The notes under the pieces: generated by a model
Told to the model about the DNA's origin: nothing
What the model saw: only the letters and a program-made list of their open reading frames with translations
Databases searched by the model: none
Source of the DNA: an uncultured Ignavibacteriales bacterium
Lineage (GTDB): Bacteria; Zixibacteria; MSB-5A5; GN15; FEB-12
Length of the DNA stretch: 64,000 nucleotides
Reading direction: 5' to 3'
NCBI GenBank assembly: GCA_964416195.1
Contig: CAYQDB010000003.1
Coordinates: forward strand, 8,555-72,554
Part shown: piece after piece, positions 3,397 through 25,402 of the stretch
Position numbering within the stretch: position 1 is the stretch's first letter
Layout: each line of letters starts with the position of its first letter
Position numbers and translations under genes: made by a program

Positions 3397-4572
3397 ATGC
3401 AGCAATCACTCATCACATCCCCAGCCGGCATTCTAGCCGTGCTGGCGGCGGTAACTTCGTTTTTCTTTTTCCTGGAAAAGAAAACGGGGTGGAAGTTCTT
3501 CAATTACTTCCCACCGCTGATCTTTATTTATCTTATACCAGTAGCATTATCAAACAGCGGTCTCATCCCGACCAAGTCGCCCGTCTACGATTTTATGGGC
3601 GCCAACATCCTGCCCATGTTCCTTGTAATCATGCTTTTGGATGTCGATATACTGGCCACGGTCCGTGTAATGGGTAAAGGGGTGTTTGTAATGCTCGCCG
3701 GTACGCTGGGTGTTGTGGTCGGAGCGCCAATTGGATTCTTCATAGTCAAGCAAGGGCTGGGGCCGGAGGCCTGGAAAGGGTTTGGGGCACTGGCGGGAAG
3801 CTGGATCGGCGGCACGGGCAATATGGCCGCGGTGGCGATTGCGCTGGACCTTGACGAAAGCACGCTCGATTTCGGTTATGCCGTGATCGCCGACAACGCC
3901 GTCTATTTGATATGGTTGCCGATTATGCTGGCTTCGAAGAATCTGGCCGGGTGGTTCAACCGCTTCACCGGAATAGCGAAGGACAGGTTGGAAACGATGG
4001 AAAAGGCCGCTGCCGAACTGACCATGGACAAAGGCAAGGTCGAGATGCGCCACTATCTGTATTTAGCCTTTTTCGGGTTTGGCGTTACGGCTTTGGCTAC
4101 ATGGATCGCAAACATGCTCCCACCGGTACCGCCTGTGTTCTCCGTGAATACGTACAAGATTCTTATCGTGACGGTGGTCGGCATCATCCTGTCGTTTACC
4201 AGAGCCAGCAAGATACCCGGTTCCCACGCTCTGGCCATGGCGCTGGTCTATCTGTTCGTGGCGCGGATGGGGGCTAAGGCCGACCTGTCGAATTTGAGCA
4301 CGTCCGTCTTCTGGTTCTTGCTGGGGGCATATATCTGGATTTTCATACATGGAGCTTTTCTCGTTACGGCGGCCAAGATATTCAAAGTCGACGTCCACAC
4401 AGCGGCCATTGCCTCGGCAGCGAATATCGGCGGCGCAGCCTCCGCGCCGATTGTGGCGGCGTATCACCGGACGACGTTGGTGCCAGTCTCGATATTGATG
4501 GCGCTTTTGGGCTACGCCATTGGCAACCCCGCTGCGATATTAGCAGCTACGTTGTGTAAATGGGTGGGGTGA
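3397..4572 (+). CDS. multi-pass membrane protein, DUF819-like
   Basis: 391 aa and hydrophobic throughout, with GSWIGGTGNMAAV and ANIGGAASAPIVAA motifs recalled from the DUF819 family. Confidence 0.55.
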   Translation: MQQSLITSPAGILAVLAAVTSFFFFLEKKTGWKFFNYFPPLIFIYLIPVALSNSGLIPTKSPVYDFMGANILPMFLVIMLLDVDILATVRVMGKGVFVMLAGTLGVVVGAPIGFFIVKQGLGPEAWKGFGALAGSWIGGTGNMAAVAIALDLDESTLDFGYAVIADNAVYLIWLPIMLASKNLAGWFNRFTGIAKDRLETMEKAAAELTMDKGKVEMRHYLYLAFFGFGVTALATWIANMLPPVPPVFSVNTYKILIVTVVGIILSFTRASKIPGSHALAMALVYLFVARMGAKADLSNLSTSVFWFLLGAYIWIFIHGAFLVTAAKIFKVDVHTAAIASAANIGGAASAPIVAAYHRTTLVPVSILMALLGYAIGNPAAILAATLCKWVG

Positions 4573-5916: not shown

Positions 5917-6329
5917 AGTCTCCTATAGTTTAATTAAGTGTGACTTTTTGTTTAATTAACCAATCCAAGATAGCCTTTCGTAAAGAATACCAAACGCTAT
6001 TATAGGTGTTTTTTCTCTAACCCATAATCCCATACATTGCAATAACTTAGAGCTGAGACAAGCATACATAAAATGCGCATTTGTGCAGCGAATCTGAACA
6101 ATTGAAAAGTCTATTAATGTAACCACTATTCCAGTAACCACTTACGAACCGATCGGTTGTGATTGAATATAAGACCGCAAGACAGTAATTTTTTGGATGG
6201 CCGTAATCTTTTGGAAATTATATGATTAGAGAGGATTTTCTTAAGGGAGCCCAATAATGGGTAGCTCTTTGTAAATACTGGATGGACGGTTGGCCCACAG
6301 CTCTGGGAGTGTTGAAAAAGTCACATTTT

Positions 6330-6625
6330 TGTCATTGCGAGCAACAGCGTGGCAATCTCGGTTATTGAATGCAAACAAGATAGCCATATCACTTGGCTCC
6401 TCGCTATGACGCTTGTCATGTTTTTCAACAAGCACATTTGCCTGGTGCCCGGGTGCCCCATAGCTTGCTATGGGAAGCCTTAATCCAAGCACCCTTTTTC
6501 ATCCTTCGACTCCGCTCAGGATGACTATGTACGAGAGATAGGAGTGGCTTGCCACCGTCATGGTGAGCCGTCCATCCGCCTTTGGCGGACTGTCGGGCGA
6601 AGTCGAACAATGACATGTTTGTGAC
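6330..6625. repeat. cluster of dispersed hairpin repeats (cattgcgag...gcaatc type and TCGACTCCGCTC-core type)
   Basis: gtcattgcgagcaacagcgtggcaatc; tcatcct-tcgactccgctc-aggatga (7-bp stem); gtcatggtgagc...gaagtcgaacaatgac. The track ORFs here (6241..6492, 6425..6667) are built from these repeats. Confidence 0.6.
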
Positions 6626-18383: not shown

Positions 18384-18406
18384 CTCAAGCGAGAGGTGAG
18401 GAAGTA

Positions 18407-18727
18407 ATGGAAACAGTGCGAGTAGTTTTTATCAGTATCCCGCGCGACGAGGCCAACAAACTGGCGCGCACCCTGGTGGAGAAACGTCTGGCCGCCTGTA
18501 TCAACATTGTACCCAAGATCGAGTCCTATTTCCGGTGGGTTAACAAAGTGGAGCATGACGAGGAGGCGCTTTTGATTGCCAAAACCACCCAGCAACGCAT
18601 CGACGAATTGATGCTCTATGTGCAAGCCAACCACCCCTACGAATTCCCCGAGGTAATATCATTGCCTTTATCCGAAGGCCTCCCCGACTACGTCGCCTGG
18701 GTGAAGAAGGAGACAAAACAGGGGTAG
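18407..18727 (+). CDS. cutA: divalent-cation tolerance protein CutA
   Basis: ATG at 18407. LAACINIVP.IESYFRW...EEALLIAKT...HPYEFPEVISLP matches the CutA1 family. Confidence 0.85.
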   Translation: METVRVVFISIPRDEANKLARTLVEKRLAACINIVPKIESYFRWVNKVEHDEEALLIAKTTQQRIDELMLYVQANHPYEFPEVISLPLSEGLPDYVAWVKKETKQG

Positions 18728-18748: not shown

Positions 18749-19498
18749 ATGGGTAAGAAAAAAACTCAGATTACAGTTCGCACGGAGGATAAGTCGAAGT
18801 TTCTCGGCCTAACTGCGGTGTGGTGGGTCGTCGTAATCATGGTAGTGGGAATTCCTGTCAGCATCTGGCTGGCATTTCGTGATGGTGGCAACGGTGAGAA
18901 ACAACTACTTGAACAGAGGGTTGAGAAACTGCAAGCCGATAAGGAAGAACTGTATTCACTGTTACACCAATGCCTTGGCAATACCCCTATCATTCTTGAT
19001 AAAGACAATCCACCACCTGAGCCTGACTGTTTTGACACGGTTGAAATTGAAGTCAGAAACATCATTGAACAGGGAGGCTATGTAAACGGAGCGGATTTGC
19101 TGAGAGTTGGTAACGTTCTTTATACAAAGGGCGATTGTCAGAAAGCACTGTCCTATTATCAAGTTGCCCTTAACCAAGCTGGGCAGCACGATGACAGTTC
19201 GCTCATTGCTTCTGCAAAGGGTAATATCGGTCTGATCTATTCTGACAAGGGTGATCTGGATGAGGCGTTGAAATATCACCAGGCGGCGTTGGAAATTCAC
19301 AAGGAAGTTGGGTACCGCCAGGGTAAGGCGAATCAGTTAGGTAATATCGGTCTGATCTATAAAGCTAAGGGTGATCTGGATGAGGCGTTGAAGTATCTGA
19401 AGGAAGCTTTGGAGATTTTTGAAGCCCATGGCTATACGAAAGAAGTCGAACAGACCAAAAGAAACATTGCTGAGATTGAGCGAATGAAGAATGAGTAG
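18749..19498 (+). CDS. membrane-anchored TPR-repeat protein
   Basis: N-terminal TM helix. Tandem units GNIGLIY..KGDLDEALKY..(A/E)ALEI recur with 120-nt periodicity and long identical nucleotide runs. Confidence 0.75.
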   Translation: MGKKKTQITVRTEDKSKFLGLTAVWWVVVIMVVGIPVSIWLAFRDGGNGEKQLLEQRVEKLQADKEELYSLLHQCLGNTPIILDKDNPPPEPDCFDTVEIEVRNIIEQGGYVNGADLLRVGNVLYTKGDCQKALSYYQVALNQAGQHDDSSLIASAKGNIGLIYSDKGDLDEALKYHQAALEIHKEVGYRQGKANQLGNIGLIYKAKGDLDEALKYLKEALEIFEAHGYTKEVEQTKRNIAEIERMKNE

Positions 19499-19499
19499 T

Positions 19500-19965
19500 T
19501 GTTACACTTCGACTCCGAAACTGTGTCATAAATCGCAATTCACGCTTTCTCATGGTGGCGTCAGGCGTCTCTGCCTGACGCTTGCACGACGTATTGGTGT
19601 ATTGCGTATTCACTTGTGGCTGTCGGGCAGAGACACCCGACAGCACCTTGTAAGCTCAGGACAGGCAGGGCTTTTGACCTACGGGGATTGTTGGGGCAGA
19701 TGTGGACATCTGCCACCCACGATACTCGCCTTTGGCGTACTGCCCACAGTACACGGATGTCATTCCCGCGAAAGCGGGAATCCAGGTACTTAACGTTGAG
19801 AAAAGAGACACGAATGGATTCCTGCTTCCGCAGGAATGACGGGCGAGTAGCCTTATTGAGTCAGGTGCAAAAGGAACCTGAGCTACTAGGGCAGATGTGG
19901 ACATCTGCCGCATACAAGCAAGAAGGGTATGACAACATAGGCGAATTGGCGAGCCGAACACGGAA
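19500..19965. repeat. intergenic array of at least six unrelated perfect hairpins (REP/MITE-like)
   Basis: Hairpins at 19558-19581 (9 bp), 19620-19643 (8 bp), 19695-19714 and 19890-19909 (identical ggcagatgtggacatctgcc), 19762-19781 (attcccgc gaaa gcgggaat) and 19818-19837 (attcctgc ttcc gcaggaat). Confidence 0.7.
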
Positions 19966-19966
19966 A

Positions 19967-20029
19967 ATGAAATACTCCAAGTGCGGACATGAGGAAGATA
20001 AGGTCATAGGCAGCAAAAGTGGATATTGA
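19967..20029 (+). pseudogene. decayed duplicate of the nrdR 5' end (20-codon remnant ORF)
   Basis: 19967-20005 matches nrdR 21115-21153 at 35/39 nt. Remnant MKYSKCGHEEDKVIGSKSGY versus NrdR MKCPKCGHEEDKVVDSRPS. The first zinc-ribbon Cys is lost. Confidence 0.65.
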
Positions 20030-20972
20030 AATCCTGGGAACGGAGTCTCTGGGGGTCAGGGGGCTTTCGTGTTTTGTCAGAGCCGGAAATCAAAGAATAC
20101 TGATCGATCCGGGTATTGCCTTAGGTTACATCCGCCACGGGTTGCTGCCGCACCCTTTTCAGGTAGCCGTTGACGAAAGGATACAGAAGAAAATCGTGCA
20201 GAGATGGTCTGACGCTACGGATATAGTCATCAGCCATTTTCATGGAGACCATGTTCCCCTTGCGGATGCCAACCCGTATCAGTTCAATATCAGGAAGGTA
20301 ACCGGATTGAATCCGCACGTCAGGATATGGACAAGGAGTCTGTCGCATCTCTCAATGGTGCAAAAACGAAGAGCGGAGTCCCTTTCCACAGTATTACGCA
20401 CTGATCTGTTACCGGCGGAAGGGACCACACAGGGAATAATGACTTTTTCCGGGCAGGTATGTCATGGCGAAAAAAGCAGCCATCTGGGAACTGTAATAAT
20501 GACCAGGATTGAGGAAGATGGTGTGTTTGTGCACGCTTCTGATATTCAGCTTCTCAACGACGAAGCGATTTCCATAATACTGTCCTGGAAACCTGATATT
20601 GTATTCGCTGCCGGACCGCCTCTCTACCTGTACCACAAGGTTTTCAAAAGCAAAATGAGAATAGCCTGGCATAATGCCAGAATTCTTTCAGAGCGGGTTG
20701 GCATTTTAATTCTTGATCATCACTTGATGAGGAGTTATGAAGGGATTACATGGCTGAAGCGTCTATCGGTGGAGACAGGGAACAAGGTTATCTGCGGAGC
20801 GGACTTCATGGGGAAGCCGCGGATGTTGCTCGAAGCCAGGCGCAGGGACCTGTACAAGGATATGCCTGTCCCGTCCGGCTGGCATGAAGCCTATGGCAGG
20901 GGTGAGGTAAGCACTGATGCTTATTGGAGGTCAGCAAAGAGACTCTACAAGGAGATGAGGCTAAGCGACTAA
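20019..20972 (+). CDS. MBL-fold metallo-hydrolase, archaeal UPF0282-like
   Basis: SHFHGDH motif. The N-terminus LGTESLGVRGLSCFV....RILIDPGIALG..R.GLLPHP recalls the UPF0282 family. GTG start overlaps the nrdR remnant ORF. Confidence 0.65.
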   Translation: MDIEILGTESLGVRGLSCFVRAGNQRILIDPGIALGYIRHGLLPHPFQVAVDERIQKKIVQRWSDATDIVISHFHGDHVPLADANPYQFNIRKVTGLNPHVRIWTRSLSHLSMVQKRRAESLSTVLRTDLLPAEGTTQGIMTFSGQVCHGEKSSHLGTVIMTRIEEDGVFVHASDIQLLNDEAISIILSWKPDIVFAAGPPLYLYHKVFKSKMRIAWHNARILSERVGILILDHHLMRSYEGITWLKRLSVETGNKVICGADFMGKPRMLLEARRRDLYKDMPVPSGWHEAYGRGEVSTDAYWRSAKRLYKEMRLSD

Positions 20973-21114
20973 GGAAGTAGCGTAGGTCGAAGCCCCGTGG
21001 TTTCGACAAAGATATGAGACTTTGACGTGTGACCTACATGAATAAAGAGATTACCCACAGCAAAGCTGTGGGGTACCTCTGGTGTGTGAACGAACAATCA
21101 TGATTGGTTACTGA

Positions 21115-21567
21115 ATGAAATGCCCTAAGTGTGGACATGAGGAAGATAAGGTCGTGGATAGCAGGCCGTCACAGGATGGCCGGGCGGTGCGCCGTCGCCG
21201 TGAATGCCTGAAGTGCCACGAACGCTTCACGACATACGAGTATGTTGAGCACGGCACATTAACCGTCCTCAAGTCCGACGGCCGTAGGGAGCCGTTTGAC
21301 CGCAATAAAATCCTGACCGGCATCAAGCTGGCCTGCAACAAACGCCCGGTGACCGGCCAGCAGATGCAGTCAATGCTGGACAGTATCGAGGCCGAGCTCA
21401 GCGCCCGTTTTCGCACTGACGTCACCAGCAAGGAGATCGGTGAGGTGGTTATGCAGAAACTACGCGAGGTGGACGAGATCGCCTATGTCCGCTTTGCGTC
21501 GGTATACCGCCGTTTCCAGGATGCGGCTGAGTTCCTTGAGGAGATCAAGAAGCTGCTCGACAAGTAA
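21115..21567 (+). CDS. nrdR: transcriptional repressor NrdR
   Basis: MKCPKCGHEEDKVVDSR...RRRRECLKCHERFTTYE zinc ribbon plus ATP-cone. Confidence 0.95.
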   Translation: MKCPKCGHEEDKVVDSRPSQDGRAVRRRRECLKCHERFTTYEYVEHGTLTVLKSDGRREPFDRNKILTGIKLACNKRPVTGQQMQSMLDSIEAELSARFRTDVTSKEIGEVVMQKLREVDEIAYVRFASVYRRFQDAAEFLEEIKKLLDK

Positions 21568-21609
21568 CATGCGAAGAAACCCACCGCAAGCTGTGGGCCA
21601 CCCTGTCAG

Positions 21610-22564: not shown

Positions 22565-22584
22565 GCATCAGGTAATATTGGATA

Positions 22585-22630
22585 GCGGGCGTAATTCAGT
22601 GGTAGAATGCAAGCTTCCCAAGCTTGACGC
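22585..22630 (+). pseudogene. truncated tRNA-Gly (nt 1-46 only); left direct repeat of the islet
   Basis: 46/46 identical to 25313-25358. The T arm and 3' acceptor strand are absent. Confidence 0.85.
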
Positions 22631-22793
22631 TACCAGAACAAGTCTAATTGTCTGCCATAACTCCAAGTCTTTCAAGGGGGAACGCCAATATTGAGATCAA
22701 CCCATCTCCGATAATTGGGGCTATATAAGACAAGCCCCAAAGAGATGAAGCCGGAGAATTAGTAGGTGGTTTTTGGTTTGCCGACTCGCCTAC

Positions 22794-22825
22794 AAAAAAG
22801 CCAACAGTTAACGAGTGCTGTGGGC
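22794..22825 (-). terminator. rho-independent terminator of the islet operon
   Basis: The minus strand reads gcccacag-(10-nt loop)-ctgttggc (7/8 bp) followed by tttttt, about 20 nt after the stop at 22844. Confidence 0.5.
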
Positions 22826-22843
22826 TTTCTGTTATCTGTTTAT

Positions 22844-23266
22844 TCACCAGTTGCCGGAATCGACAATTTGCTGCTGTTGCTTTCGATCTGCATACCAATG
22901 TCCATTCCATAGAATTCGCCGGTATTTGTATTCCTCATTATCGCTGTTAGCGTATCTGATGCTGAATGTACGCTCACCGTCAATGCGGTGTCCTACAGCA
23001 TCAACCACAGTGCCGACAAATACCATTGGCGATTGGCTATTAACACGATAATACAGCTTGACTCCAGGATAGATTCGAGGTTCACACCATCTGGACTGTT
23101 CAACAGCAGAGAGGGTGTGCTGTGATTTTTCTACTTGTGGTTTACTGGTTTGTGGTTTGGTATTCTGTACATTGTAGCCCGTTATTGCTGAAAAAACAAT
23201 AAACGCCAATACTGCAGCTATAATAAAAAGCCAGCCTGTTGCTGAGGGATTCTTATATTGTTTCAT
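22844..23266 (-). CDS. hypothetical N-terminally anchored protein (islet ORF4)
   Basis: ATG at 23266 with an agagg SD. MKQYKNPSATGW followed by a TM helix. No family recognised. Confidence 0.55.
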   Translation of the reverse strand: MKQYKNPSATGWLFIIAAVLAFIVFSAITGYNVQNTKPQTSKPQVEKSQHTLSAVEQSRWCEPRIYPGVKLYYRVNSQSPMVFVGTVVDAVGHRIDGERTFSIRYANSDNEEYKYRRILWNGHWYADRKQQQQIVDSGNW

Positions 23267-23279
23267 TGTCAAACCTCTG

Positions 23280-23672
23280 TTAAAGAATAGTCCAATTGTT
23301 AGGATTGTGAGGATTGCCGCCATCCCATACCACTTTACAATCCGCCACCGAAGAATCATAAGCAGCACCGTTCACATAAAGTATCCAGTATCCTGTAACA
23401 GTCCACGTATACTTACTACTGTCTTTATTGATGACAGTAATGGTGTCTATTGCACCATGATATTCCATATTATAATCCCACGGAACAGGAGTTTTGTGTA
23501 AGTCCCGCATCATGTCTTTATATACACGAGCTATAAATTTGTTGACAACTACTGTTGCGTCATCTGTGGTAGGCGGATGTGGCACATATCTGTTATAAAG
23601 CCAAGACCAAGCAGCAATTTGACTTATTATTGCTACCACTGCCAGTACTACAATCCATCTTGTTTTCATCAC
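23280..23672 (-). CDS. hypothetical N-terminally anchored protein (islet ORF3), paralogue of ORF1
   Basis: TM helix, PPTTDDA, C-terminal GGNPHNPNNWTIL (compare ORF1 GRNPAISHNWRIL). Confidence 0.55.
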   Translation of the reverse strand: MMKTRWIVVLAVVAIISQIAAWSWLYNRYVPHPPTTDDATVVVNKFIARVYKDMMRDLHKTPVPWDYNMEYHGAIDTITVINKDSSKYTWTVTGYWILYVNGAAYDSSVADCKVVWDGGNPHNPNNWTIL

Positions 23673-23691
23673 GACCTCTTAATTTTGTTAT

Positions 23692-24156
23692 TTAAGGCAG
23701 GCTATAATGAGCCTCTGCGATTACATATTCTCCACTGCTGGCGGATGTCTTCATTTTTACACCATCTACATAAATCGACACATGCAAACCCACACATGCT
23801 GGATCCGTCAATTGAGCACTGACGTATAGAAAATTGCCTTTTATCGCTCCAAACGAATACGTCCAAGGTTCGTTCCTTTTGAAGTATGCTTCTTTTTGTG
23901 ATGTTCCACCATCAGCATTGGTGTAAGTAATAAAAACTTCAGAATATTCAGTATATCCGGTGCGGACCTCATATTCGATATTGTGTACTGTGTATTCGTC
24001 AACATAAGCAGAAACAGAGACATTTTCACTATATGCTGGTTTCTTGTTGTTGTGACCAGTACCAGTATGTGTCAAAGCTATGATGAATACTATAAAAACA
24101 GGTACGATAACGAGCCACAACAAAAAGGGAGTTTTTTTCTTTTGCTGTTTCATCAC
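23692..24156 (-). CDS. hypothetical N-terminally anchored beta-rich protein (islet ORF2)
   Basis: TM helix followed by YEV..G....V.ITYTNADGG..Q......PW.......VSAQ.......V.IYVDG, loosely MmpS-like by eye. Confidence 0.5.
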   Translation of the reverse strand: MMKQQKKKTPFLLWLVIVPVFIVFIIALTHTGTGHNNKKPAYSENVSVSAYVDEYTVHNIEYEVRTGYTEYSEVFITYTNADGGTSQKEAYFKRNEPWTYSFGAIKGNFLYVSAQLTDPACVGLHVSIYVDGVKMKTSASSGEYVIAEAHYSLP

Positions 24157-24620
24157 GACCTCCTTTCACCAATTGCTCGATTGCGATTGTCAACTGACAT
24201 AAGGCTGGTTCCCATTGAAAAATAAAGGATTCGCCAATTATGAGATATCGCCGGATTGCGACCCATCCATTGCATATCCAATACTAATGTTGTCGAATCT
24301 ACAACGGTATTACCCTTATCTTCGGACATCAAGAACCAGCCTTCGGCTCTCCACACATTATACTGCATCTTGGGATACAAATCTGCATCTCTCTTCGATA
24401 CTGTAAGACAGTAATGTGTGTAATAACCCTCCTCCAAACCAATACTTGCAGCCACAAGAGCAGAATCACAGAGCGTCTTCATTGCATTCACCGCATCTAA
24501 CGTTGTTGGTCGCAGTGGCATACCATACCAATATTGTGCTGTTACCAGCAGAACAACAGAAGCGACAATAGTAATAGCAGTCCACCAACCTGCTGAAAGA
24601 TGATCCTTATATTGTTTCAT
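24153..24620 (-). CDS. hypothetical N-terminally anchored protein (islet ORF1)
   Basis: MKQYKDHLSAGWW followed by a TM helix. 4-nt overlap with ORF2. Shares a 15-nt start region (cttatattgtttcat) with ORF4. Confidence 0.55.
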   Translation of the reverse strand: MKQYKDHLSAGWWTAITIVASVVLLVTAQYWYGMPLRPTTLDAVNAMKTLCDSALVAASIGLEEGYYTHYCLTVSKRDADLYPKMQYNVWRAEGWFLMSEDKGNTVVDSTTLVLDMQWMGRNPAISHNWRILYFSMGTSLMSVDNRNRAIGERRS

Positions 24621-24676
24621 TTTATATTTCCCCCTAATTTAAAAGTTATCCATATACTTCATCGGCAATGGTGACC

Positions 24677-24826
24677 TTATTTATTATTAAGTAGTAGCAT
24701 CTCCATTTCGTCAGCAATATCTTCAAGCTGCGCATACTGTTTGCTGGTGCCAAATTCTGATTCGGTTAAATGCACACGTAGACGTATTACCAGATTATCA
24801 AGTATTTTATACATTATTACTGTCAT
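24677..24826 (-). CDS. possible 49-aa small ORF upstream of the islet operon
   Basis: MTVIMYKILDNLVIRLRVHLTESEFGTSKQYAQLEDIADEMEMLLLNNK. Below the track cutoff. Preceded by a possible 27-aa basic ORF at 24829..24912. Confidence 0.25.
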   Translation of the reverse strand: MTVIMYKILDNLVIRLRVHLTESEFGTSKQYAQLEDIADEMEMLLLNNK

Positions 24827-25162
24827 AACTACATTTCCTGCACCTGCTGTTTTGATTTAGTTTGCATTTTCATCTTACGCCTGCCTTTCTTGGTGGATGA
24901 GTATGTCATCATTCTAATTTATTAGAATGGCAAAGAACGTGCCGATTGATCGAAGCTAAGGAGAGGTATTGCCCTTGGCCTTTGTTTTGGATGTACTCTC
25001 GCACGGTATATACCTTAAACGCTTACGTACGGGGAAGAGCTTCCGAGACGCACTCCTGTGGACAGGAGCCGGTGGATTAGACCAGCATATATAGAGCAAG
25101 ACCTATATTGGTAAACTGTATATATAATTTGTGGATTTGTTCCTACATCTTCGATATATCTG

Positions 25163-25191
25163 TTGACTATATTGGAATGCGCCAATATAAT
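25163..25191 (+). promoter_or_regulatory. sigma70-type promoter (TTGACT-N17-TATAAT) inside the islet, pointing at the intact tRNA-Gly
   Basis: TTGACT at 25163-25168, a 17-nt spacer, TATAAT at 25186-25191, about 120 nt upstream of the tRNA. Confidence 0.4.
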
Positions 25192-25312
25192 ACACGCCTG
25201 TGCAACTTGACAGAGACGGCTTTGTGTATTTTTTTGTATATAGAGACATTTTGAGACGTCAAGTCTTGGAGATGAACAGTATCTCGAAGATGACGTTTCT
25301 TCTTGGAGACAA

Positions 25313-25384
25313 GCGGGCGTAATTCAGTGGTAGAATGCAAGCTTCCCAAGCTTGACGCCGTGGGTTCGAGTCCCATCGCCCGCT
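25313..25384 (+). tRNA. tRNA-Gly (anticodon CCC)
   Basis: 72-nt cloverleaf drawn by hand: acceptor gcgggcg/cgcccgc, D arm attc-agtggta-gaat, anticodon arm caagc-ttCCCaa-gcttg, T arm gtggg-ttcgagt-cccat. No encoded CCA. A T-run follows. Confidence 0.9.
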
Positions 25385-25402
25385 TTTTTTAATGGATGCG
25401 AC

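Follow-up and report, generated by a model that had tools for sequence, protein, structure and literature searches.

In this study, a gene encoding a metallo-beta-lactamase (MBL)-fold protein was found directly upstream of nrdR, enclosed between two copies of the nrdR 5' end, in a 64,000-nucleotide stretch from an uncultured Ignavibacteriales bacterium of the GTDB lineage Zixibacteria (contig CAYQDB010000003.1, positions 8,555 to 72,554; hereafter the window). The arrangement is, with very little doubt, an insertion specific to the lineage that has a copy of the nrdR 5' end on either side and in which the MBL gene is functional and the upstream copy of the nrdR start is a dead remnant. The features of the locus, with positions counted from the first base of the window, were as follows.

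18749 to 19498, + strand: TPR-repeat gene (Pfam TPR_12 and related), the left neighbour and synteny anchor, which lies upstream of nrdR in the related locus L088 and upstream of the remnant and the MBL gene in the sister-lineage locus L086
19946 to 19965, + strand: short leader just ahead of the ATG of the remnant, also conserved in the sister lineage; the homology between the window and L086 begins here
19966 to 20015, + strand: upstream repeat copy, the nrdR 5' remnant, with a 42/50 match to 21114 to 21163
20019 to 20972, + strand: the inserted gene, with a GTG start, encoding a 317-aa MBL-fold protein of the PRK04286 type (Pfam, NCBIfam)
20973 to 21113, + strand: spacer that separates the end of the MBL gene from nrdR, with hairpins GTAGGTCGAAGCCCCGTGGTTTCGAC at 20983-21008 and CCCACAGCAAAGCTGTGGG at 21054-21072
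21114 to 21163, + strand: downstream repeat copy, the functional nrdR 5' end, starting 1 nt before the ATG
21115 to 21567, + strand: intact nrdR, 150 aa, with zinc ribbon and ATP-cone (TIGR00244, Zn_ribbon_NrdR, ATP-cone)

A repeat search of the window yielded a 50-nt direct repeat, 19966-20015 versus 21114-21163, with 42 of 50 positions identical (84%). The first-pass annotation had described a match of 35/39 nt between 19967-20005 and the first 13 codons of nrdR (21115-21153), and this match was reproduced. All four mismatches of the 39-nt span fell within its first 19 nt and were followed by the perfect 21-mer GGACATGAGGAAGATAAGGTC, which occupied repeat positions 20-40 of 50 and thus lay toward the inner (3') side. 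Past 20005 the likeness to nrdR was weaker, yet it could still be traced to 20015 in both the window and its sister lineage (GGCAGCA or GGGTAGTCA versus GGATAGCA), and the GTG of the MBL gene was located 3 nt past 20015. The repeat began 1 nt before the ATG, the nrdR start sequence being AAGTGYGGACATGAGGAAGATAAG, and the DNA upstream of the two copies was mutually unrelated. A 27-nt core pattern occurred exactly twice in the 64 kb and in none of 100 shuffles. Moreover, the motif was confined to nrdR starts and the remnant across all fetched loci, which indicated that it was not a dispersed repeat. Five assemblies made independently of one another, namely the Logan contigs L001-L003 and the JGI contigs L133 and L134, showed the same sequence at both junctions, and an assembly artefact was therefore excluded.

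The downstream copy belongs to a complete gene. The intact nrdR matched TIGR00244 with 197 bits (cutoff 124.65), aligned over 1-147 of 147 positions, and its product contained a full Zn_ribbon_NrdR domain (1-42 of 42), an ATP-cone at residues 50-136 and the cysteines Cys3, Cys6, Cys31 and Cys34. Public calls of this gene mostly gave 137 aa from the GTG at 21154, an often-used start, and lacked the first CxxC; the ATG at 21115 gave the full 150-aa NrdR in which the zinc-ribbon model was covered from end to end. Some Zixibacteria NrdR homologues (P0132 and P0134-P0136) were 251-253 aa long, with high total scores and only about 55% identity to the query, and these may carry a second ATP-cone.

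The upstream copy, on the other side of the MBL gene, encodes an open reading frame (ORF; 19967-20029) of 20 codons, MKYSKCGHEEDKVIGSKSGY, followed by a stop, and only the first 16 or so of these codons are derived from nrdR. The loss of the first zinc-ribbon cysteine, noted earlier, was found again as the replacement Cys3Tyr, accompanied by Pro4Ser. The remnant of the sister lineage retained Cys3, and its frame was broken by an indel. With 20 codons, Cys3 changed to Tyr and this broken frame, the remnant does not qualify as a functional NrdR or zinc ribbon. The inferred ancestral remnant differed from nrdR at 1-2 nt in 39. The left copy is a dead, decaying nrdR fragment marked by Cys3Tyr, Pro4Ser and indels in its tail.

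Comparison with related loci revealed the site before the insertion. The closest named relatives of the NrdR protein were from Zixibacteria, and judged by these matches the host is probably Zixibacteria-like. In L088, whose NrdR was 88% identical at the amino-acid level, the order was serine hydroxymethyltransferase, thiamine-binding protein, CutA1, TPR protein, 195 nt of hairpins and nrdR, with no MBL gene. In L090-L092 (NrdR 77%), the order was thiamine-binding protein, CutA1, nrdR and tatC, and nrdR began 35 nt after cutA. The window showed the string of its relatives, conserved on the same strand as glyA, the thiamine-binding protein gene, cutA, the TPR gene, nrdR and tatC, plus an MBL gene between the TPR gene and nrdR. 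These empty sites, with TPR directly followed by nrdR in L088 and CutA1 by nrdR and tatC in L090, bore out the earlier proposal that the gene was inserted right at the beginning of nrdR and that the nrdR 5' end was duplicated, and no relative had the MBL gene upstream of nrdR without an nrdR-like remnant. The TPR gene itself contained internal 120-nt repeats (for example, 19220-19297 and 19338-19417), and its product varied in length among relatives, with 249 aa in the window (18749-19498), 299 aa in L086 (562-1461) and 196 aa in L088 (5215-5805).

A sister lineage, represented by L086 and L087 and also by L004, L005 and L135, shared the inserted arrangement in the order CutA1, TPR, remnant and MBL. 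It was 91% identical to the window in the MBL protein and 91% identical in nucleotides over window positions 19946-20991. In the remnants of both lineages, codon 4 was TCC (Ser), as observed in all five of these sister loci, while every nrdR examined had CCN (Pro) at this codon. This common derived codon revealed that the insertion was a single event that preceded the split of the two lineages. Homologues of the MBL protein were surveyed at 80 species-representative GTDB loci and at 38 more from metagenomes. Most of the protein could be compared, at 49-75% identity, the exception being L132, a short end-of-contig fragment with 88% identity over 50 residues, and neither nrdR nor an nrdR-like fragment was found near the gene at any of these loci.

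Several further observations were made in the sister lineage. An IS3-like insertion sequence (IS) was located inside the first hairpin 3' of the MBL gene, at the junction of GTAGGTCGAAAC and TGATCTTGCCCC, and this element is a later, separate insertion. Its end reads TGATCTTGCCCC..., and it carried an ORF, MMLRCHFDRDFKLNAV, with a weak HTH_Tnp_1 match (L086 2578-2762; L004 1920-2021; L135 1057-1106). The sister contigs all ended in this element, so that the nrdR of the sister lineage was not recoverable. Three different upstream joins were observed in this population (L004 1-790, L005 1-354 and L086 562-1475), with breakpoints at the GTAGGTCGAAACCCCTGCGGTTTCGAC hairpin and with 3 mismatches and one 29-nt indel in the block. 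Furthermore, the synonymous divergence (dS) between the lineages was 0.27 for the MBL gene and 0.55 for cutA (window 20019-20972 versus 18391-18724, few sites); the lower value of the MBL gene may reflect a more recent exchange of the MBL block or differences in rate.

The only gene between the two repeat copies was that at 20019-20972, whose GTG start lay 11 nt inside the remnant ORF, as had been described previously. Its product matched Pfam Lactamase_B with 27.6 bits (cutoff 22.7) and contained the expected SHFHGDH sequence, an HxHxDH metal motif in which H73, H75 and H78 were invariant and D77 was nearly so among 20 homologues; further His and Asp residues were also invariant. Among the NCBIfam models of the PRK04286-type MBL proteins (NF003287-NF003290), NF003288 (PRK04286.1-2) was matched over its full length (1-302 of 303) with 384.3 bits, which is below the 409-bit equivalog cutoff. 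As judged by these sequence models, the protein is a member of the PRK04286 group at the family level and not an equivalog. The first-pass annotation had likened the N-terminus to the mostly archaeal UPF0282 family, presumably another name for this MBL family; a literature search of the term gave no result, and the comparison was sound insofar as the protein proved to be of the PRK04286 type. This family is widespread, occurs in anaerobes and, to our knowledge, has no assigned function.

The MBL gene showed a dN/dS ratio of 0.16 (0.044/0.269) between the window and L086, which indicated a maintained, functional gene under purifying selection. Its GC content and GC3 were within 1 SD of those of the window genes. 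The AlphaFold model of the protein was confident, with a pLDDT of 82.9, and had only a weak structural match to glyoxalase II, and no solved structure was found among its relatives. No conserved gene neighbourhood of the family was detected across the 80 GTDB loci (threshold of at least 80 aa). A link of the family to ribonucleotide reductase was considered and dropped, as it appeared at only 2-3 loci.

The taxonomic distribution of the family modified the earlier description of the gene as archaeal-type. Of the 80 GTDB loci, 15 were archaeal and 65 were bacterial. The nearest sequences were from a Krumholzibacteriota metagenome-assembled genome (MAG; 73%) and from archaea of the anaerobic methanotrophic group ANME-2 and Methanosarcinales (about 70%). 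In a neighbour-joining tree (no support values), the window sequence was sister to a group formed by the Krumholzibacteriota sequence and the ANME-2/Methanosarcinales clade, and this group was nested in bacterial sequences. Thus archaea are indeed among the nearest relatives, but the homologues were not mostly archaeal, nor was the window sequence nested in an archaeal clade. Horizontal acquisition of the MBL gene is clear; by the homologue counts and the placement in the tree, the donor may have been archaeal or bacterial and the transfer may have run in either direction. In other organisms, the MBL gene started with ATGGATATTGAA... or ATGAACATAGAA... and was preceded by unrelated DNA, which placed the foreign left edge at or just before the MBL start codon.

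In ANME-2/Methanosarcinales, a conserved 74-aa zinc-ribbon ORF (MIIIKCAKCKRK...) lay directly downstream of the MBL gene and overlapped it through an ATGA stop/start (L008 4957-5181 and 18 other loci, for example, L095-L101, L105-L107 and L063), and its product is a possible functional partner of the archaeal MBL protein. In contrast to this closest archaeal clade, the window had no such ORF, and its downstream nrdR happens to open with a KCxKC zinc knuckle. In L061, from an Aminicenantes MAG, the MBL homologue was fused in frame to an aminotransferase (699 aa), and the fusion was flanked by a 173-nt non-coding direct repeat with 81% identity (3810-3982 and about 6173-6344). Duplications flanking MBL homologues elsewhere were sought as parallels and only that of L061 was found, which was set aside as a different phenomenon.

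At the left junction, the leader and the first 36 nt of the remnant (19946-20002) differed at only 4 of 57 nt between the window and L086. The synonymous-site divergence was 0.23 in the MBL gene and 0.39 in cutA, and the excess conservation of the leader was significant in a binomial test (P about 0.002). Immediately after it, the 13 nt at 20003-20015 contained all 5 indel columns of the 1049-column alignment of the window and L086. These sequence comparisons suggest that the start region of the remnant is under constraint, and 19946-20002 probably serves as the leader of the MBL gene. Possible translational coupling of the MBL gene to the remnant had been proposed previously, and comparison with the sister lineage did not support it in the form proposed. 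In the window, the TGA of the remnant (20027-20029) lay 8 nt past the GTG at 20019, whereas a net indel of 1 nt shifted the sister remnant into another frame that ended about 75 nt inside the MBL gene, so that the stop/start overlap was not conserved. The 20-codon ORF ending 8 nt past the GTG could allow re-initiation in the window, and the sister lineage indicates that it is not required. A programmed frameshift that fuses the remnant to the MBL protein was rejected, since the shift needed differs between the lineages and no plausible role can be seen for half a zinc ribbon.

Promoter prediction gave no sigma-70-like site on the + strand ahead of either the remnant or nrdR. Apart from the MBL coding sequence, the whole interval from the TPR gene to nrdR had neither a predicted + strand terminator nor a promoter-like site. 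No Shine-Dalgarno-like sequence preceded the MBL gene (such motifs were present at about 43% of rough gene starts versus a 20% background), and the mRNA around the MBL start showed no unusual structure (z = +0.6). The earlier suggestion was that the MBL gene may use the former nrdR promoter; read-through is made more likely by the finding that nrdR is part of a same-strand string in the relatives, 35 nt after cutA in L090. Transcripts that start in the genes upstream probably continue into the MBL gene, and nrdR would then be transcribed through the spacer, in which no + strand terminator was predicted.

The locus is embedded in hairpins, and two features were added to those listed above.

19499 to 19945, no strand assigned: intergenic, GC-rich cluster of perfect hairpins resembling repetitive extragenic palindromic (REP) elements
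21580 to 21597, + strand: second copy of the CCCACAGC/GCTGTGGG hairpin, just past the nrdR stop, imperfect with one mismatch

The cluster contained perfect hairpins at 19558-19581, 19619-19644, 19695-19714, 19762-19781, 19818-19837 and 19890-19909. It could not be aligned with the sister lineage, which indicated rapid turnover. Of the approximately 12 perfect hairpins in the window (stem of at least 8 bp), 7 were within 19558-21072. The two hairpins reported to flank nrdR were both present, that at 21054-21072 being perfect, and owing to its hairpins the spacer at 20973-21113 was strongly structured (RNA fold z = -3.0). Many hairpins had a GTAGGTC head or its complement GACCTAC and occurred as inverted pairs (19668-19683 and 20981-20996; L088 5814-5878), and these GTAG-headed hairpins resemble REP/REPIN elements. 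Rfam and tRNA scans of the 19.3-21.8 kb region were empty.

A second insertion with a similar geometry was found 1.1 kb beyond tatC, at a tRNA-Gly(CCC) gene.

22584 to 22630, + strand: left repeat, a tRNA-Gly(CCC) fragment (nt 1-47), preceded by a native TTGACA-N17-TAAATT promoter
22631 to 25311, - strand: low-GC island of 2.7 kb with four small predicted membrane-protein genes (GC about 40% versus 51% in the window)
25312 to 25385, + strand: right repeat, with the intact tRNA-Gly(CCC) (ARAGORN)

The repeat of this island was perfect over 47 nt (22584-22630 and 25312-25358) and corresponded to nt 1-47 of the tRNA gene. The empty site was preserved in L090, where tatC, the TTGACA-N17-TAAATT promoter, the tRNA gene and a radical-SAM gene followed one another with no insert. 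The native promoter ahead of the left tRNA fragment revealed that the left copy is the native one and that the first 47 nt of the intact gene came with the insert. No Pfam family above threshold and no integrase was found among the genes of this island. Both duplications in the window began at the first functional base of the right-hand gene and ended 47-50 nt inside it.

By analogy with this parallel island, and from the onset of the repeat at the first base of the gene, an integration that replaces the 5' end of its target is the favoured explanation at nrdR. An nrdR-like 5' segment would have been present on a circular element, and recombination between this element and the chromosomal nrdR would have taken place inside that segment, in a site-specific event of the Campbell type. 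The original nrdR 5' end with the native upstream DNA would have been left as the remnant, the present nrdR 5' end would have been supplied by the element, and the element would later have decayed to the MBL gene and the hairpin-rich spacer. In a Campbell-type event with a replacement 5' end, only the part that becomes the functional gene must match the target. tRNA genes are classical targets of integrases. We hold the account as a whole, an ancestral MBL insertion including this mechanism, to be evenly poised between right and wrong.

Several points weigh against it. No integrase or other recombinase was found in either insert, and a scan of ten further mid-size ORFs of the window gave none. 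The insert at nrdR is small, with a single gene in 1.1 kb, and it has no sequence in common with the tRNA-Gly island. The MBL family lacked viral or clear plasmid carriage, as no viral homologue was found in IMG/VR and the only plasmid match was to an 809-kb chromid. The mismatch-free core of the repeat was only marginally unusual (the chance of such a run is about 0.06-0.07), and the leader-conservation argument is based on one lineage pair. Moreover, the DNA upstream of the remnant and of nrdR showed no usable homology to the nrdR leaders of four relatives; because all of these leaders are filled with fast-changing hairpins, it is from the tRNA analogy alone that the native copy is argued.

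Several known systems are comparable. Islands and prophages integrated in tRNA genes were reportedly surveyed by Williams in 2002. In these cases, as with the element e14 and phage 21 in icd, integration is of the Campbell type: a substitute end of the gene is brought in by the element, and part of the gene remains as a duplicate. These cases share with the favoured reading the Campbell-type substitution of a gene end, and the second island of the window likewise uses a tRNA gene. However, the classical tRNA and icd cases duplicate the 3' part of the gene, whereas both cases in the window duplicate the 5' part from nt 1, with the consequence that the intact gene loses its native upstream region. 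Cis-mobilizable elements (CIMEs) are integrase-less derivatives of integrative elements bounded by att sites, and they are defined by a known integrative and conjugative element (ICE) whose integrase acts on them. The insert resembles them in its short length, its att-like direct repeats and its lack of recombination genes, and differs in having no known parent element. Insertions of IS elements and transposons are likewise flanked by a target duplication; theirs is typically 2-15 bp and is accompanied by a transposase and terminal inverted repeats, whereas here the duplication was 40-50 nt and neither a transposase nor terminal inverted repeats were present.

The closest analogue was found in the islands and prophages that integrate in the 5' end of dusA, supply a new 5' end and leave a remnant of the original one (Farrugia et al. 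2015, PMC4482086). The likeness lies in integration in the 5' end of a coding gene that is kept whole, with a remnant on the opposite side and imperfect flanking repeats, but every dusA island encodes a dedicated tyrosine integrase, spans tens of kb, is bounded by att sequences of 21 bp and excises as a circle (PMC4482086), whereas here there was no integrase, 1.1 kb with one gene, a repeat of 40-50 nt and nrdR as the target. The flanking repeats of the target 5' end and the pairing of an intact gene with a remnant were thus both present, and an island-encoded tyrosine integrase was not. The locus is a scar of gene transfer for which the dusA islands are a known analogue, and it does not represent a novel type of system.

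The main rival to the integration of an element is duplication in situ during break repair, which is a possible origin although an unlikely one. In this scenario, a break or collapsed replication fork near codon 17 of nrdR would have been repaired by copying foreign MBL DNA, and synthesis would have resumed about 50 nt upstream of the break, so that the target was duplicated in a templated insertion through microhomology-mediated template switching with no mobile element involved. An insert of one gene with no mobility genes is consistent with such an event, as are the near-identity of the repeat copies at the time of formation (the ancestral remnant being 1-2 nt off nrdR in 39) and the location in a hotspot of REP-like hairpins, which are prone to fork stalling and rearrangement and one of which was also hit by the IS in the sister lineage. 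However, break repair does not account for the onset of the duplication at the first base of the gene or for the tRNA-Gly island, whose duplication has this geometry too and likewise starts at nt 1 of its gene, and junction microhomology was not evident.

A second alternative, which appears quite improbable, is that the remnant travels with the MBL gene as a mobile block by means of the flanking hairpins or the adjacent IS, the nrdR-like piece having arisen elsewhere and its position next to nrdR being secondary. In the sister population, the remnant-MBL-IS block was joined to three upstream contexts, namely the TPR gene (L086/L087), an FRG-domain gene (L004) and another (L005), with breakpoints at the GTAGGTCGAAACCCC... 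hairpin, and the same type of hairpin bounds the block on its 3' side. However, the contigs with these alternative joins are short metagenome contigs and the joins coincide with 27-nt repeats, so that they may be assembly chimeras or later rearrangements. Moreover, the block occupied the same chromosomal place in both lineages, after cutA and TPR, its remnant was an almost perfect match to the nrdR next to it, and the search for copies outside the lineage gave none. Finally, an explanation by coincidence, by a dispersed repeat that has nothing to do with nrdR or by assembly chimerism has a negligible probability, since a 42/50 match is unexpected by chance and had no counterpart in the shuffles, the motif occurred only at nrdR starts and remnants, five independent assemblies agreed at both junctions, and no point in support of this explanation was found.

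An extension of the favoured reading was also considered, in which the lineage hosts small integrase-less cassettes at the extreme 5' ends of genes (nrdR and tRNA-Gly, about 1.5 kb apart), each bringing a replacement 5' end, with the displaced native promoter and start region driving the cargo and the remnant acting as a conserved, functional expression leader rather than a scar; we regard this generalization as doubtful at present.

In conclusion, the locus provides a cleanly resolved example of the entry of a foreign gene into a conserved gene string in which an important regulator, nrdR, was left intact because its 5' end is present in two copies. The event took place in the common ancestor of two lineages. 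Considered alongside the tRNA-Gly island, it points to an integration that replaces the 5' end of its target, a polarity that has been documented mainly for the dusA islands. Such integration separates the target from its own upstream region and puts the cargo behind that region. Should further genomes confirm this, nrdR would join the known targets of integration, and remnants of this kind would offer a practical way to find small, decayed islands in metagenome-assembled genomes.

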